64,000 nucleotides of DNA from Callorhinchus milii (taxonomy: Eukaryota), in assembly GCF_018977255.1 (NCBI RefSeq), contig NW_024704742.1:124870001-124934000 (forward strand). The letters are read 5' to 3'. Of this stretch, positions 596 through 62,195 are shown piece after piece (positions within the stretch are counted from its first letter, which is position 1; each line of letters opens with the position of its first letter). The translations under genes and the position numbers were made by a program. The notes below the pieces were generated by a model. That model had not been told where the DNA came from. It made no database searches and saw nothing but the letters and a program-made list of their open reading frames with translations.

Positions 596-1584
596 AATAC
601 AGTAAGAAAAGAGATGGGGAGAGGAAAGAATCATAAATAGACATAGTTTAAATGATCATGTTTTTCACAAAATTATTCTGTGCAAAAAAAAGGAAATTGA
701 AAGTAATTCAGGTGACAAGATTTTGAGGTGAAGCACAGTTTATAGTTGTGAGGTTCCAAAGTAACCTTTTTTCTTGATAGGATCATGTTCTCATTCAGTT
801 AGTCCCCCAGAACCTCCATCAAATTGCATTGAAAATAATGAGGCTTCTTACAATTTCTGGTTGAAATCCCATTTAAGATGGTGGAAATCTCTGACATTTC
901 CAGTTAGACATCTCTATTTCTAGCTTGGAGTTAGGGCAAATATTTTAAATCTGTAAATATCTAAAGAAAGCTCTGTTTCCCCAAAAACCTTAAATATTCT
1001 AGAAAGGGAAGAACTGTTCTGAATATTAGTGCTATTAATATTTAATTTCTAAATACATACAAGTACTTAAAAACCTTTGGAATTTCTGTAAACATGAATA
1101 ACTGACATAATATTTTTGCTTTCACAGATATGGAGTCAGGAAGTATGAGGGACAAATGTAATAACAAATATTAATAACATTGGACGCATAGGCTTAAGCA
1201 GAAGAGATGCCTTTAAAGAGTAAAAGGCGATTATGTTAAAGCATAAATGGAGCATTAACATTTTTAAAATCCCCAACAGTCTAATCTAATCTAACCTTGG
1301 TCAATCCAATTTTTTAAAATGTAGGGTAAAGTTTAAAGCAGTCACTTGAATTATTTTTGTCAGCATCTGTTTTTCATGCATTTGTTCAACTTCTAAATAT
1401 CCACATAAAAAGCCAGTGGTTCCCATTTCAAATGGTCCTTCTTTCGCTCTTCACTGCAAAGTTCTGTTTTCCTTTGAAAAATACCTCCCCCTCCTCCCTT
1501 GAGTAAAACAAATGAAAATGTATCATTCGGGAAACTTTCTGGATTTTTACTAGCTTCCTATTACGTACAAAGAATGAATTACCA

Positions 1585-3146
1585 CCTGCTGCCTCCATCA
1601 TCCCTCCCCACCCAGCTGCTGGTCAGTCAAGTCCCCTTCCTCTCCCCCCTGCTGGCCGACACAGTCAACCGGTCTCTCTTCTCAGGCTGTGTTCCACTCC
1701 TCCTGAAAATCGCTGTCATCCCACCCTCCTCAAAAAACCCACCCTCAATCTCTCTATTCTCTCACATTACCATCCTATTTCCAACCTGCCCTTCCTTGCT
1801 GAAGTCCTGGAAAGCATTGTTGCAGGTCAACTGCGGTCACACGTCTCACTCTACTCCCTCCTTGAACATCTGCAGTCTGGTTTTTGCTCTACCCACAGCA
1901 CAGAGACAGCGCTTGTCAAAGTCACAAACAATGTCCTCTCTATCTGTGACCGGGGCTGCCTCTGCTTCCTCATTCTCCTGGATCTCTCTGCTGGGTTCGA
2001 CACAGTTGACCACCCCATCCTCCTCCACCACCTCTCCTTCCTCATCCACCTTAATGGACTTCACTCGCACGGTTCGAGTCTTACTTAACCAACCGCCTCT
2101 ACTTCATCTTGGCAAATGGTTTCTCCTCCCGTCCCCACTCAGTCACCTGTGGGATACCCCAAGGCTCCATCATTGGCCATCTTCTTTTCCTTATCTATAT
2201 GCTCCCTCTGGGCGATGTCATCTGCAGATACGGGGTAAACTTCCACACGTATGCGGATGACACACAAATCTACTTTGCCTCCTCCAGTACCAACTGCCGA
2301 TGTTCTATCCGCTTGTCTGGCAGACATCAAGCCCTGGATGAATGCAAACTTCCTGCAGCTGAATGTGGATAAGATGGAGACCATACTCCTTGGTCTCGTC
2401 AAAGTCTTCACTCCTGTGGATCTGAACTCCTGAACCTCCCTGGGCTCTCCTTCAGACTCACCAAACCAGGGCGCAATCCAGGCATCCGGTTTGACCCCTA
2501 ATTGTCCTTCCTCACCCGGTTGACCGCTTTCTTCCACCTCTACCACATTGCCCGCCTCTGACCATACCTTACCCCAAATGCAGCCGAAACCCTTGTGCAT
2601 GCGTTTGTGACCTCCCACTTGGATTACTCAAATACACTCCTCGCCGGTCTCCCCAGCTCCACTATTCAAAAGATCCAGCTCATTCAGAACTCTGCTGCCT
2701 GGATACTGACCCAGACGAAACCCTGTACCATCTCACCAGTTCTGGCCAGGCTCTACTGGCTCCCCACCACCGAACGGATCGACTTCAAGGTCTTCGCACT
2801 CATGTTCAAATCCATTCACTCCCTGGCACTTCCCTATCTCTCCGACCTCATCACTCCCCAATCCATCACCCGGCGCCTCCACTCAAATGGCACTGGCCTC
2901 CTGCTCATCCTTTACCATCTCCGCCCCACCATCGGAGTCACTACGACCTGAAACTCTAGAACACTCTCCCTCAATCCCTCTGCCTTGCCCACTCCTCTTC
3001 TTCAAGATCTGCCTGAAAACCTTCCTCTTCGACCGTGCTTGCGGCCACCTTCCCACCCCAGGCGCAGAGTCAGGCTCCGCCACTGTTAAGCGCTCTGAGA
3101 TGCTACCCTGCGTGGAAGGCACAATATAAGTGCAAGTTGTTGTTGT
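1585..3146 (+). mobile_element. L2 LINE (lineage B), 5'-truncated, frameshifted reverse transcriptase pseudogene
   Basis: Across frames: HPISNLPFL, QSGFCSTHSTETALVKV, LLDLSAGFDTVDH, GIPQGSI, YADD (2250-2261), HAFVTSHLDYSN, LQ/IQNSAA; 3' end CGCTCTGAGATGCTACCCTGCGTGG...GCAAG(TTG)n. Confidence 0.93.
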
Positions 3147-11270: not shown

Positions 11271-11540
11271 GGAGTCCTGTAGCTCAGTGGTTAGAGCACT
11301 TGCCTCGCAAGCGAGAGACTTGGGTTCGATTCCCAACAGGGCAAAACCTTGGGCAAGTTTCCTTACTCCACACGCCTGATAATAATCCCTCAAGAAAAAA
11401 ATACAATAATAAATTGATCACTTCAATCCACGACTGCCGCGTTTCGCCCACAAATATACAGTCAATTCACTTTACAGTATATTCTGTGAAGCGCTTTGAG
11501 ACGTCTAGAAGATGTGAAAAGCGCTATATCAAATGCAAGG

Positions 11541-11586
<46 letters not shown>
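11271..11586 (+). mobile_element. Young tRNA-Ala-like SINE (TAGAA-loop tail), ~30-bp internal deletion, long (ATT)n
   Basis: Colinear with 9787 copy; deletion between two CTG; possible TSD TATCT. Confidence 0.93.
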
Positions 11587-11589
<3 letters not shown>

Positions 11590-11679: not shown

Positions 11680-11786
11680 CGTTTTGCCCACAAACTATAC
11701 AGTTAATTCACTTTACAATATATTCTGTGAAACGCATTGAGACATCCTGAAGATGTGATAAGGCGCTATATCAAATGCAAGGATTA
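11680..11786 (+). mobile_element. SINE 3' half whose (ATT)n tail is split by the Helitron-like element
   Basis: Ends ATCAAATGCAAGGATTA; TATTATTA resumes at 12484. Confidence 0.8.
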
Positions 11787-12483
11787 TCTATGCTAATGAA
11801 ATGATAATGTCTATTTGTGTGTCAGCCAAGATTTCAATAATGAATTGATGTAGAGACATGATTTATAGCTCAACTGAACGATCTTGCATTTAGGAGTGTT
11901 ATGGTCATATTGTTTTTCGGGGATCTTCTATCGTCCATGAGTTATGACCTAAAGAAGCTCATCACACATGCGTGGTGGTTTTGTGTTTTGTTCTGCAGTT
12001 GCCCCTGGTGGTCATGCCAACTCCCAGTGGCACTGTGACATTGTGTGTCACAGAGCACGTACGTATGCATACGCGTAGCACGCACTCAGATGAAGCCAAG
12101 CGGTGGGAACAAGATAAAGATGCCTAAGCAAACATCAAGCCTTTCAAGTACAAATAAAAATGCCAGACAAAAGAAAGAAAGCCGATTAAATGAAACTGAA
12201 GAACAAAGAACAACACGGCGGCATGGTCCTGCTGGATCACATAGTAAACCCCTTTGGTTGGCGTAGCTTTGGTAAGATCTTCTATCATTCATGAGCTATG
12301 ACCCTTTGATAGGATCTTCTATCTTTCATGAGCTATGACCCAAACAAGCTCATCACACATGTTTTGCTTAAGGTGTACACACAGTTTTTATGGATGTTAA
12401 ATGGTTTGTGAATGGTATCACTGAAATCTACATTCCATATTAGATCCTTTGGTTGCAAGCGTAACTGTAATCAGTACAGCTAG
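11787..12483 (+). mobile_element. Non-autonomous Helitron-like element
   Basis: Starts TCTATGCTAAT after A (11786), ends CAGCTAG before T (12484), no TSD; imperfect subterminal hairpin; internal ORF remnant MPKQTSSLSSTNKNARQKKESRLNETEEQRTTR. Confidence 0.72.
12120..12218 (+). pseudogene. Remnant of a Helitron Rep/Helicase N-terminus (STPR-like repeat)
   Basis: Basic MPK start followed by R-x-N-E-T-E-E-Q-R-x-x-R, resembling STPR repeats (ETxEQRxxRL) found at the N-terminus of some animal Helitron proteins; recognised from memory. Confidence 0.55.
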
Positions 12484-12494
12484 TATTATTATAT

Positions 12495-12660
12495 AAGGAT
12501 AAGATCAGGTTTGGCCCCTTGATGGTTGACTGCTCTGCTGATACTCACTGCCTCGGCTCACACCTCATGAGAAGTCATTTGGGTATGATACTCCAGAGTG
12601 CAGCCTGTGGAACCATACCCCAGCCTGAGTCTCTGCCTGCAGTAGAGGGGAGGGAGAGAG
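12495..12660 (+). mobile_element. Ancient SINE 3' fragment (resembles AmnSINE2/LmeSINE-class; name uncertain)
   Basis: ACTCACTG...GGCTCACAC...GTGGAACCATACCCCAGCCTGAGTC...GAGGGGAG matches a remembered ancient vertebrate SINE consensus. Confidence 0.45.
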
Positions 12661-13555
12661 AATTATAGGGGAACAACAAAAAGTGACCAAATCAATTAAA
12701 CTTACAATTTTTAAAATGTTATTGTACACTCAGCCTGTCATATAAAAGGAATAGAGGACAGGACGACAATGCAAAACAAGATTCATTACATTCATATGAT
12801 ACATTGTCGTAGCTGCTTTGCCTTATGGAGTCACTCCTGGACTAAGCTGGGAGCCATTTGTTGCCTTCACACACACAGCACAACACAAAGAGAAGATCCA
12901 CGGTTTGGAACTATAGGTAATTAAAGACTTCACTGTTTGACTAGACGTGAGGTTTTCAAAGCTTCAATTTTATGTAACATTGTTTTGTAAATAGCATTTA
13001 CTCAGAAAGTCCATTTTAAATGCTAAACTAAAATGCTATAAAACATTTTATGTGTATAACTTATATGTATATTACTAGGAAAAAATCACAAGGTTACTCA
13101 CTGAGCTATTTTTGCAGTAATTGGATTTATCGAATAAAGTGTTAGTTTGTTGGCAGTGGGCAGTGGTAAAGTGCAGTTTTCCGCTTGAATAAGCAGCCCT
13201 TTCATCCTTACAAGTGACAAAATAAAAATCTGCTGAAGAGTGAACATGCTGCTTCAACTGTGCCATCTCAGCCCCATGGGTCACTTTATTATAAAAATGT
13301 AAAAATTCAGTCAATTTTATTTAATCAGCTGAAAAGGAAAAGTGTTTCCAGGTCATTAATCAAGTCTTACTCCTCAGTGGGACTTGTCTGTGGAGGATTT
13401 GTCATCTGAATCATTAATAGAGATATAAATATGCTCATTCAAAACACACCAACAAGTGGAAGTGGCTCTTGCGTACCTGATGCACAAAGCACACAGTTTT
13501 TCTGCTTTGGCACCTGGATTTCATATTTGCTCACACTAACTGCAATCTGCCACAT

Positions 13556-25182: not shown

Positions 25183-26075
25183 ATAACATGTAGGAGCAGG
25201 AGTAGACCATTCGGCCCTTTGAGCCTGCCCCGCCATTCAATCATGGCTGATCTTCTAATCTAACACCAGCTAATAACCTGACCCTGCCTTATCCCCATAT
25301 CCCTTAGTCCCTTTTGCAATAAGAAATATATCTATCTCAGTCTTGAATATGTTCAAGGACTGAGCATCAACAGCCCTTTGGGGTAGCGAGTTCCATACAT
25401 TCACCACCCTTTGAGTGAAGAAGTTCTTCCTCAACTCAGTGCGAAAGGGCTGTCTCTGATTTTAAGGTTGTGACCCCTGGTTTTAGTTTCTCCAACCAGG
25501 GGAAACAATCTCCCACTATATACTCTATCATGCCCTTTGATGATCTTATAGGTTTCTATAAGATCCCCTCTAATTCTTCTATATTCTAGAGAATATAGGC
25601 CCAAATTGGTCAGCCTATCCTCGTAACTCATCCCCTTCATCCCTGGTACTAACCTAGTAAATCTATGCTGCACCCCCTCCAAGGCAAGTATGTCCTTCCT
25701 TAAATGAGGAGACCAAAACTGGATGCAGTATTCCAGGTGTGGTCTGACCAGGGTCCTATACAGTTGCAGCAAGACTTCCCTACTCTTATACTCTAATCCT
25801 TTCATAATGAATGCTAACATACCGTTCGCCTTCCTAATTGCTGCTGCACCTGCAGACTAACTTTCTGTGATTAATGCACAAGGATACCCAAGTCCCTCTG
25901 GACGCTAACACATTCCAATCTCTCCCCTTCTAAAAAGTAACCCGCTTTACTGTTTTTGCTACCTAGGTGGATGACTTCACACTTCCCTACATTATACTTC
26001 ATCTGCCACCTACCTGCCCAATCACCTAACCTATCTATGTCTTGCTGCATTTTTTAATGTCATCCTCTGTGTTGA
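25183..26075 (-). mobile_element. CR1 LINE, 3' part of ORF2 plus 3' UTR
   Basis: GLEYKSREVLLQLYRTLVRPHLEYCIQFWSPHLRKDILALEGVQHRFTRL...RRIRGDLIETYKII...TRGHNLK. Confidence 0.95.
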
Positions 26076-33856: not shown

Positions 33857-34729
33857 ATTGGGGTCAATTTTCACATGTATGCAGATGGTACCCAACTCTA
33901 TCTCTCTGCCTCCACCCTTGACTTCAGGACCACTGCTGTCCTGACAGAATGTTTGTCAGACATCAAGTCCTGGATGAAAGCTAACTTTCTACAGTTGAAC
34001 GTCAACAAGACCGAGGCTCTCCTGATTGGCTCCCGTTAGTGCCTTCACATCTCAGGTGCTGACAGCATCACCATACAAGGATGCACACTACACCTTACTG
34101 AGCCAGCCTGGAACCTTGGCGTCTTGTTTGACCCTCAACTATCCTTTCTACCCCACATCTGTGTCATGTCCTACTCTGCCTTCCCCCACCTCTGCACCAT
34201 CACCCTGCTCCATCACCGTCTCACATCACAGACTTGAGAGCCTCATACACGCATTCGTAACATCCAGGTTTGACTCTGCAAACTCTCTGCTTGTGGCCTC
34301 CCCAACTCCTCCCTCCATAGGCTGCAGATCATCCAGAACTCTGTACCCTGTGTCATCTCCAGGCTCCGTGACCCTATCACCCCCATCCTCGCCTGATTCC
34401 ACTGGCTCCCCATCATGCAGAGGATACAGTTCAAGATCCTGGTCCTCACCTTTAAAGCCCTCCATGACTTTGCACCCCCCCTAAATCTGCCCCTTCCGTT
34501 CAGCGGGCTCCGCCCTCCTTCAAGACCCATCTCAAGACCCTCCTCTTCGATCATACCTTCGGTCACCCTCCTTCCCCAGCTCGGATCTGAAACACTGATT
34601 TGCCTGGCCTTGGGACATCCTCCCAACTTGAAAGGTGCTATACAAATGTAATTTTGTTGTTGTTATTATTAAGCGTTCCAGGACACTATCCCACTTGAAG
34701 GGCACTATATAAATGCAAGTTGTTGTTGT
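33857..34729 (+). mobile_element. L2 LINE fragment followed by a second, different L2 tail (34669-34729)
   Basis: GVNFHMYADGTQL, CLSDIKSWMKANFLQLN, QRIQFKILVL; two consecutive stem-loop/(TTG)n ends. Confidence 0.9.
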
Positions 34730-35445
34730 ATAGTGAGAGAACTGGCTTGGAGGAATTGCTGAGCCCAATAATGTGAGGAAAATAAATTCACACCAGTTTA
34801 TTACACAACAGTCATTAACACAAAGTGCTTCAAAATTTGAACATGGTAATTCAGCACAGTCATTCACTCTTAGGCTCAATCACTCATTCAGGTCAGTTTC
34901 TTGGAAGCTGGTAATATCAAACAAGATTTAACTCATTGTCCGGTTGAATTACTGTAGGCATTTCTTAGATTTTAAATGAATACATACGCACATTTTCTTC
35001 CCCAATTTTCTTTCTAGACAGAATAACGCTGTGGCTATGGCAACACTATTTTAGCCACATACACTAATTTTAGTAGAGAAAGATCCTTACATGCACTGAC
35101 ACAATACAGGTATTGAAAATTGGGGAAGAATATATATTTTTTTGCCTCAGTCATATACATGGACATGCATAAATGTGCGTATGTATTCATTTAAAATCTA
35201 AGAAATGCCTACAGTAATTCAACCGGACAATGAGTTAAATCTTGTTTGATATTACCAGCTTCCAAGAAACTGACCTGAATGAGTGATTGAGCCTAAGAGT
35301 GAATGACTGTGCTGAATTACCATGTTCAAATTTTGAAGCACTCTGTGTTAATGACTGTTGCATAATTAACTGGTATGAATTTATTTTCCTCACATTATTG
35401 GGCTCAGCAATTCCTCCAAGCCAGTTCCCTCACTATATAACAACA
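34721..35445. repeat. Long inverted repeat, 275-bp arms, 175-bp spacer
   Basis: 34721-34995 vs 35171-35445; 7 mismatches by manual comparison. Confidence 0.97.
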
Positions 35446-35687
35446 AAATGGACAAAATCAGGTAAATATACTTCAAATGTATGTTTACATATACATTTTC
35501 AAAATCAAACCTGGTGTGCTTATAGCCTCCTCAACTCCTCCCTCCATAGGCAAGACGTAAACCAATATCCTGTCTCCTCTTCAGGTAGATATTAAAGATG
35601 CCATGACTCTATTTTGATGGGGTAGGGGTTCCTCCTGGTGTCCTGGCCGATATTCCTCTCTATCAATGCTTTTTGCGGAATTCTGAT

Positions 35688-35989
35688 AAATAATAATATA
35701 ATCCTTGCATTTGATCATCTTCTAGACGTCTCAAAGCGCTTCACAAAATAGACTATAAAGTGAATTGACCGTATATTTGTGGGCGAAATGCGGCAGCCAA
35801 TTGTGCACAGCAGTGTCCCACAAACAGTCGTGGAATGAAAATGACCAATTTATTATTGTTTTGTTTTGGAGGGATTATTATTAGGCATGTGGAGTAAGGA
35901 AACTTGCCCAAGGTTTCGCCCTGCCTGGAATTGAACCTAGGTGTCTTGCTTGCAAGGTGAGTGCTCTAACCACTGAGCTACAGGACTCC
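35688..35989 (-). mobile_element. Young tRNA-Ala-like SINE
   Basis: rc colinear with other copies; small deletion in tail. Confidence 0.92.
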
Positions 35990-38911: not shown

Positions 38912-39388
38912 TCATAGAATCATAGAATTATACAGCACAAAAGGAGGTCATTTGGCCCATCGTGTCTGTGCCAGATCTTTGAAAAGAGCTATCCAATTCA
39001 ATCCCATTCCCCTGCTCTCTCCCCATAACCCTGCAAATTTGTCCTCCCCAAATAATTATCTACTTCTCTCTTAAAAGTTGCTATGGAATCGGCTTCCACC
39101 ACCCTTTCAAGCAATGCATTCCAGATCAAAACAACTTGCTGTGTAAAAAAATTTATCCTCACCTCCCCTCCGCTTCTTTCAACAACTATTTTAAATTGGT
39201 GTCCTCGGGTTACTGACCCACCCGCCAGTGGAAATAGTTTCTCCTTGTTCATCTTGTCGAATCCCTTCATAATTTTGAAAACTTCTGTTAAGTCTCCTCT
39301 TAACCTTCTCTGCTCCAAGGAGAATAATCTTAGCTTCTCATCCTTCCTAAAGTGTGGTGCCCAGAACTGAACACAGTACTCTAACTGA
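38912..39388 (-). mobile_element. CR1 3' ORF2 fragment plus 3' UTR, internally deleted
   Basis: EQRRLRGDLTEVFKIMKGFD...TRGHQFK...NFFTQQVVLIWNAL. Confidence 0.93.
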
Positions 39389-39756
39389 ACGCCCTCTTAT
39401 TATAGATTTTACAGTTAGATCTTGTAGGGTCTGTTCTTACACCGCTTGATATCCAAATAAGTTGTCTTTTTATTTAATATCTGAATTAAACCTGAACTCT
39501 GATAAATAATCACTGCATTGAAATAGGTCCACAATATGTTTCATTAAATACTCAAGGACCTTTTAATTTTAGGTGGTGCATGTATTGAGTTTGGATCGTT
39601 TCTGTGCTGGTGCCAGGTGTGATTTTGAATGCTCTATCAGGACATTTCCAGGCCATTGATCCACCATGACATTCACATTCCGAGGTGAAGGGCCACAAAA
39701 TCACTAATGCAAGCAGTGAGATTCAGTGGATTCCTGTGAAACTCTTTTAGAATGTA

Positions 39757-45325: not shown

Positions 45326-46059
45326 CATTGCATCCTCCTATCAACTGCCAGATATTTTCTCCTTTTCAGAGGTATGCTCAAAAGCTGCGCAGGAGTAGGA
45401 AATGGGATATCATTTTCCTCTATTCAATAATTTAAACAAACACATAATAATAGCTCCTCTTCCATTCAGAACCATATAAGGTGCATCAGTTCCTCTGCAC
45501 AAGTAAATGACCAAGGGAAAGCTGCAGCACTATGAGGCTGAATCTGTGCTTATTCCTTGCTCCCTAGTTCAATCATGAGTTGTTTTGACTAAGTGCTAGT
45601 ATGTGAAGATGTGGGTTTATCCTATTACATTACTTTGTTTGGTCTTTTCTAATTGTGCACTTACAAAAAAACTGCTTTTCATTGTGCAATTATACAGTGT
45701 CCTCCTTGTTGTGTACAGTGGTCTCTTTCATGTTCAGTCTAGGTATTCTTATCTGTGTATGAATGTTACGAACCTCAAAAGGAGAATCTCGTCATTGAAA
45801 TGCCTTTTAAAAATCGTTTTTTNCAGTGAATTATGAACTTTAAGATTTCTTTTTCTGTGCTATTTTGGTGGATTTAAAAATATATGACAATGTGTTTAAA
45901 TGGTGAATGGCATTGACTGGTTCACTGACCAACATAAGTGAACTCTAAACTTGGTTTAAATGTCAAATTGTGTAATGTTGTTGGGCTTGTGACTGTACCT
46001 TTATTAATGGCATAAAAAAGGGAGGGAGAGGGAATAAAGGTCACAAGATCATAAATTAT

Positions 46060-61707: not shown

Positions 61708-62195
61708 ACAGCACACTAAGCTGACAGCAAAGGATATTCAATTGCTTATATGCATATGCAACTAATCACAGAAGTGTTAATTTTCTATGACAATTAGGTT
61801 TCAAATGGCATCCTGATAAGAGATAAATCCAGTAGTGAAACGCCCAGCTAAATTTTTACTGATGGAAATTAATAAAACAGAAGTGTCCATTGAGGAACTC
61901 TGCAAATGTGAATATTTTTAAACATTGTAATTTCTAAAAGAATGCACTCTTCTGGAGCTCATCTACAGTAAGTGCTTGATATTATTCAAACATGCCTATA
62001 GCATTGGTAGTCCCAAAACTAGACACTTGGAATAGTCTTCCCACTGGTATTGTAGCTGAGCATTTCACTACTGGATTTGTCTCTTATCAGGACTACATTT
62101 GAAACCTACTTGCCATAGAAAATTAACACTTCTGTGATTAGTTGCATATGCATATAAGCAATTGAATATCCTTTGCTGTCAGCTTAGTGTCCTGT
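61708..62195. repeat. Long inverted repeat, 143-bp arms, 202-bp spacer
   Basis: 61708-61850 vs 62053-62195; 9 mismatches by manual comparison. Confidence 0.95.

Follow-up and report, generated by a model that had tools for sequence, protein, structure and literature searches.

The insert at positions 11787-12483 (+) of the window, by which we mean the whole 64,000-nt stretch of Callorhinchus milii DNA analysed, is 697 nt long with 41% GC and occurs once within it. It begins with TC at 11787-11788 and ends with CTAG at 12480-12483 (+), and at this one site it is flanked by an A on the 5' side and a T on the 3' side. The host sequence is a 5'-truncated, 107-nt 3' tail of a tRNA-headed SINE (11680-11786, +), 74-90% identical to the other tails of the window and broken after its first ATT unit; the ATT tail resumes at 12484-12495 (+). 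These coordinates and letters agree with a sequence-only reading of the locus, which had described a compact Helitron-like element inserted into a SINE tail. A SINE tail is indeed interrupted, but the host is the 107-nt 3' fragment, and the whole SINE lies at 11273-11587 instead. That the insertion postdates the SINE holds for the tail copy at 11680-11786, and the nesting shows only that the Helitron copy arrived after this fragment.

Repeats found within the window cover 36% of it. Eleven tRNA-like heads mark the SINE family, which is ~320 nt long with an ATT tail and occupies 11 sites across 9789-63034; ARAGORN assigned eight of the 11 heads to tRNA-Ala and the rest to Cys, Met and Val. The copy at 11273-11587 is ~60 nt shorter mid-element than most others, and a second type of SINE tail in the window ends with TTG repeats. 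The tRNA head of the SINE neighbouring the insert was the only Rfam match above threshold. Pfam was scanned with 144 frames, 142 from outside the in-window repeats and two from LINEs; this yielded no host gene, and only RVT_1 at 1519-2085. LINE fragments comprise an RVT_1 frame at 1516-2088 (+) and CR1-like frames at 25434-25856 (-) and 38998-39396 (-). The CR1-like frame at 25434-25856 has 926 homologues, and the closest named ones among the best 120 listed come from Callorhinchus milii, at 84% identity across 65% of the query, and from Chiloscyllium punctatum, at 69%. The long inverted repeat at 34720-35446 has two 276-nt arms, 97% complementary and 175 nt apart; because the arms start inside a SINE-like copy, in its TTG tail, it could have arisen by foldback duplication and need not be a MITE. 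Another inverted repeat, at 61708-62195, is MITE-like, with 143-nt arms that are 94% complementary and 202 nt apart. The single N of the window is at 45823.

The ends of the insert matched the earlier description of Helitron-type termini, with TC and CTAG placed at A|T and no terminal inverted repeat among the 22 inverted pairs found in the insert. One of these 22 similar pairs, 11829-11841 with 12417-12429 (8-13 nt), starts 42 nt inside the insert. No direct repeat of 3-12 nt flanks the insert, but the proposed lack of a target-site duplication (TSD) is uncertain, as TA directly adjoins both ends. Removal of one TA leaves a perfect ATT tail, as begun by 12 of the 14 other tails in the window. 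After GGATTA, those 12 continue with TT, and the empty-site variant expected without a TSD was found in one of 14 (at 35708). The insertion site therefore fits three readings, namely A|T without duplication, a TA duplication, or T|T with the start at 11788, which are inseparable because there is a single insertion site. CTRR precedes T(ATT)2 at two of 85 such sites in the window. Besides the end of the insert, this is 29848 (-), where a second CTAG has an ATT run behind it but no recognisable hairpin or element upstream; it served as a chance control. Several SINE tails of the window also run into ATC by chance. By themselves, TC and CTAG termini are weak evidence for an element, and it is the multi-copy depth with its sharp 3' edge that lifts the insert above chance.

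This depth was obtained by mapping the contigs of four of 23 listed public sequencing runs at 80% likeness: X14 (organism A, the same species), X3 (organism B), X9 (organism C) and X10 (organism D). Part of the insert is contained in 17 of the 23 listed runs and over half of it in four, all from organism A and a single study. In X14, the left junction lies in a single-copy contig spanning 11762-12111 (one difference, depth 5.7) and the right junction in a single-copy contig spanning 12438-12790 (no differences, depth 8.3). Both junctions are thus single-copy in X14, which rules out an assembly artefact and places the SINE fragment outside the mobile unit. Summed depth inside the element ranged from 174 to 30,101 in X14 (21 to 3,627 times the single-copy flank) and from 6 to 992 times the flank in X3; since such sums are not copy numbers, we take them to mean that the ends number between hundreds and a few thousand. 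The host SINE tail reached ~80,000 times single copy in the mapped runs. Every 40-nt bin of the insert was multi-copy in all four runs mapped, in line with the multi-copy family that had been predicted. In the right flank, 12591-12670 is a low-copy repeat, with 2-4 times the flank depth in X14 and X3 and a depth of 125-195 in X10. An X10 joint from 11779 to 12485 (depth 81.7) was considered as an empty orthologous site and set aside; many SINE tails could match its short ATT-rich side at 80% likeness.

The X14 depth profile rose to a 5' peak at 11831-11870, fell to a trough in the middle, rose again over the coding remnant and was highest at 12431-12470, and the profiles of X9 and X10 had the same shape. 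The 5' terminal module, a putative LTS that starts with TC (11787-11870, +), reached ~900 times the flank at its peak in X14, and depth was down to ~65 times the flank by 11911. At the 3' end, depth fell from 30,101 (12431-12470) through 756 (12471-12510) to 14 (12511-12550). The insert thus belongs to an interspersed family, the copies of which have common ends and a variable interior, the common ends being seen at 40-nt resolution and the exact terminal bases being read in the copy at 11787-12483 only.

The interior bears several marks of rearrangement. X14 depth dropped from 277 at 12220-12223 to 120 at 12224 and 13.5 at 12225-12227, so that the internal deletion junction (12222-12230, +) directly behind codon 34 of the coding remnant is almost unique to this copy. 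The proposal that the element is internally deleted was supported at this point, where depth is near single-copy just behind the STPR-like codons. Other deletion forms were present in the runs, a joint from 12219 to 12394 in all four and one from 11868 to 12312 in X10. A 50-nt direct repeat has its first copy at 11921-11970 (+), 90% identical to 12312-12361, and one X10 contig jumps from 11971 to 12361. The second repeat copy is overlapped by a 37-nt tandem duplication (12267-12340, +), the units of which are 92% identical. Behind the deletion junction lies a degenerate copy of the 3' end (12236-12275, +), which aligns to 12432-12473 with 25 identical columns, has no CTAG and holds a GCGNAGC mini-hairpin core at 12261-12267. 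It may represent a former, bypassed end, as in the read-through model (PMC4778049, in part), or else a local duplication. Upstream of the ATG, the CpG-richer stretch reported at 12055-12105 (+), a putative promoter, was confirmed by count, with six CpG in 51 nt vs 0.71 per 50 nt across the window. GCGNAGC occurs at eight sites of the 64-kb window, two of them inside the insert: the core just mentioned and 12073-12079, within the CpG-richer stretch.

Many animal RepHel proteins open with STPR repeats. The ATG at 12120 opens the peptide given in the sequence-only reading, in a frame of 48 codons, of which the first 34 (12120-12221, +) appear to be the remnant of a RepHel-type ORF start, with an STPR-like repeat start at codons 25-34 (12192-12221). 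The conserved STPR sites are Glu1, Thr/Ser2, Gln5, Arg6, Arg9 and Leu10 (PMC4856987, in part). Codons 25-34, read from the TC...CTAG strand, carry five of these six (Glu1, Thr2, Gln5, Arg6 and Arg9). Residue 34 becomes a Leu, and the six are complete, with the majority allele at 12220 (269 of 277 depth, 15 contigs in X14). The suggested likeness to STPR was supported. Five sites were reached by 29 of 5000 shuffled inserts and by none of 89 other tiles of the window, for a six-site motif that was picked after STPR had been named in the sequence-only reading. The silkworm FMBP-1 STPR (PF21107; PMC4856987, in part) has Glu1, Thr2, Gln5, Arg6 and Arg9 in common with this copy and Leu10 with most other copies; FMBP-1 binds DNA with three or four whole repeats, whereas only the first 10 of the 23 residues of one repeat are found here, with no tandem 23-residue repeats.

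Searches with the peptide added little to these conserved sites. It had no match above the cut-off in Pfam, none by phmmer over 1.84 billion representative proteins, none among 85 candidates in a 5.8-billion protein set, none in the PDB and none among 121 stretches in viral contigs; with only ten informative residues, empty protein searches are likely. In the ESM Atlas, a cluster with 12% PF21107 was in the top three (score 0.86-0.87, 148-150 shared features), which we take as a lead only. An RBR match on a 75-aa frame (Pfam E 0.042) fell below the cut-off. One metagenome match (L001, one of 599 stretches among the matches listed) was judged to be chance, as its surroundings are a GC-rich bacterial ABC-permease region whose frames contain no Helitron gene. 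The copy at 11787-12483 has neither Rep nor helicase sequence. We infer that the peptide is a fossil that gives no functional protein.

Two overlapping hairpins were found at the 3' end. The subterminal one (12453-12470, +) is imperfect, 18 nt long and 13 nt from the end, a canonical spacing. It is decayed at 12464 in this copy, where its folding energy is 0.0 kcal/mol; the majority allele at that position, found in 103 contigs in X14 (4442 of 4895 depth), brings the energy to -0.7 kcal/mol. The hairpin proposed from the sequence is thus in place, ending 9 nt before CTAG, but does not fold alone. With the majority allele, 12459-12465 becomes a GCGNAGC mini-hairpin, for which a Tm of about 70 C is given for N = T (PMC13037366, in part). 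The second stem, of 8 bp with a 5-nt loop (12462-12482, +), reaches into the terminal CTAG. It is perfect with the majority allele (12462-12469 with 12475-12482), when it folds at -6.9 kcal/mol (z -2.7, 6 of 300 shuffles); the 3' end of this copy is no more stable than its shuffled versions (z -1.1 to -1.2). Because one allele repairs both hairpins, it cannot tell which of them matters. Compared with the canonical 16-20-nt palindrome ~11 nt from the 3' end, this copy has an 18-nt imperfect hairpin 13 nt from its end that is unfolded, with a stronger stem overlapping the end. The overlapping hairpins offer a small, testable idea on Helitron 3'-end termination signals.

At 23 or more sites of the element, most other copies differ from the copy at 11787-12483, which amounts to at least 3.3% private change; these majority differences were taken from the best-supported 40 of 437 rows, and the majority alleles at the 23 sites are as a rule identical across the four organisms. 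The six longest pieces of other copies in X14 were 12-20% different, in a sample biased to divergent copies. CpG decay accounts for none of the 23 listed majority differences and is therefore unusable for dating. X3 has the orthologous right flank, with 35 differences in 279 nt, and the host SINE was at very high depth in all four organisms mapped. This is the pattern of an old family passed down within a single group of organisms.

Horizontal acquisition, which the sequence-only reading had put forward as a possibility, was not borne out for this family. All four organisms mapped also carry the host SINE and one the orthologous flank, and none of the four is a distant holder of the element, the index being one that finds only near-identical DNA. 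A 29-nt pattern of the 3' end had no match in metagenome, viral or prokaryote contigs. Since all these searches pick up near-identical DNA only, they could have missed an old transfer. Runs with small shares of the insert (for example the fish gut metagenome X13, at 0.04) were not accepted as evidence of host range. We consider it unlikely that the insert represents an uncatalogued family acquired by the chimaera lineage through horizontal transfer from an invertebrate, with a two-state 3' terminator, in which a GNA-loop mini-hairpin alternates with an 8-bp stem that hides CTAG, together with a bypassed end at 12236-12275.

Taken together, these observations indicate that the insert is very probably an old, internally deleted, non-autonomous copy of a canonical Helitron (HLE1). 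TC and CTAG stand at A|T with no terminal or subterminal inverted repeat (TIR or subTIR); depth is multi-copy, with peaks at both ends, the higher at 3' and followed by a sharp drop; other deletion forms occur in the runs; and the majority alleles at 12464 and 12220 restore the hairpin and complete the STPR sites. The STPR motif lies on the TC...CTAG strand, and HELIANO detected STPRs in hardly any Helitron-like elements other than HLE1 (PMC11417382, in part), the same source recording HLE1 in Callorhinchus milii, skates and rays. Against this assignment, the best-folding 3' stem extends into CTAG, a non-canonical geometry; TA at both flanks permits a reading with a 2-bp TSD and a cleaner empty site; and the peptide searches were empty, the Atlas cluster was only 12% PF21107, and Rep and helicase are missing from the copy.

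Some of these same features would suit a non-autonomous Helentron (HLE2, HINE-like) inserted at T|T, starting at 11788 and ending in a terminal stem-loop. With such a start, the ATT tail of the empty site is perfect; the majority allele gives a perfect 8-bp stem at the very 3' end, and the 8-13-nt inverted pair is present. The subTIRs of HINEs, however, are 12-15 bp long and 2-4 nt from the 5' end (PMC4067079), where the best matches here are 8/12 and 9/15; the inverted pair begins far inside and is not singular among its 22 like; and the CTAG end and STPR point to HLE1, so that we regard an HLE2 origin as very unlikely. A cut-and-paste or other DNA transposon, non-autonomous and with unusual or decayed terminal repeats, would account for the TA at both ends by duplication, one TA being dispensable for the usual tail, and common ends with variable middles suit any non-autonomous DNA transposon. 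TA is frequent in an ATT tail, though, no inverted pair is terminal, and the hairpin, CTAG and STPR-like codons would be left unexplained, which makes this origin very unlikely as well. We attach an equally low probability to boundaries that are partly coincidental, the insert being a fragment or mosaic of an older repeat beside which a SINE tail inserted, with an unrelated ATT run downstream. The second CTRR-T(ATT)2 site of the window and the chance ATC in other SINE tails speak for coincidence, as does the masking of the 5' depth edge by the SINE; yet multi-copy depth starts in the first bin past the SINE tail and stops in the CTAG bin, with single-copy sequence outside.

If the copy is a canonical Helitron, its origin may be pictured on the Helraiser model (PMC4778049, in part). 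A RepHel transposase supplied in trans would have nicked at the 5' TC; one strand would have been peeled off, with a pause at the 3' hairpin and a cut at CTAG. The copy would then have been inserted at an A|T step, in this case within the AT-rich SINE-fragment tail. What it retains of the parent would be the 5' region plus the 34 initial codons of the transposase ORF, with the start of one STPR DNA-binding repeat. Neutral decay and vertical inheritance within related fishes, probably chimaeras, would have followed.

An autonomous parent may already be catalogued. Supplementary Table S1 of PMC11417382 (in part) lists the Repbase HLE1 element Helitron-1_CM from Callorhinchus milii and two from Amblyraja radiata, and its Table S10 gives HLE1 in four of eight chondrichthyan genomes, with up to 11,154 insertions. 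Helitron-1_CM, known to us by its table rows alone, is of the same class and probably the same host group, and is a natural candidate for the parent; it has Rep and helicase, neither of which is in the copy at 11787-12483. As HLE1 Helitrons are already recorded in a chimaera, skates and rays (PMC11417382, in part), any special novelty was not supported, and the element is a new or already catalogued member of the well-known HLE1 kind. Our literature searches found no paper on this element.

Among better-described relatives, Helraiser and HelibatN1-N3 of bats (PMC4778049, in part) share with this copy TC/CTAG ends, an A|T target, a subterminal hairpin and non-autonomous derivatives moved in trans. 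Compared by description, Helraiser has a 19-bp palindrome 11 nt from its end, whereas the hairpin here is imperfect with a GNA-loop core and is joined by a second stem over CTAG. HeligloriaB (PMC2997563, in part) and Heli1Xen1 (PMC12001565, in part) are likewise short non-autonomous HLE1 copies in vertebrates, and these papers establish horizontal transfer of Helitrons. Both elements exceed 80% identity across distant taxa, in contrast to the present element, for which the runs and contigs searched gave no distant holder, and the RTS pattern quoted for Heli1Xen1 (PMC12001565, in part) differs from the hairpin here. Sharks have no occurrence in the main text of either paper.

The copy changes neither the known Helitron mechanism nor the known host range. 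Nested copies of this kind can order SINE and Helitron activity or act as presence/absence markers among related species. Since the elephant shark has been reported with very few DNA transposons (PMC6817897, PMC4350176), a Helitron family whose ends number in the hundreds to a few thousand deserves a place in repeat libraries.
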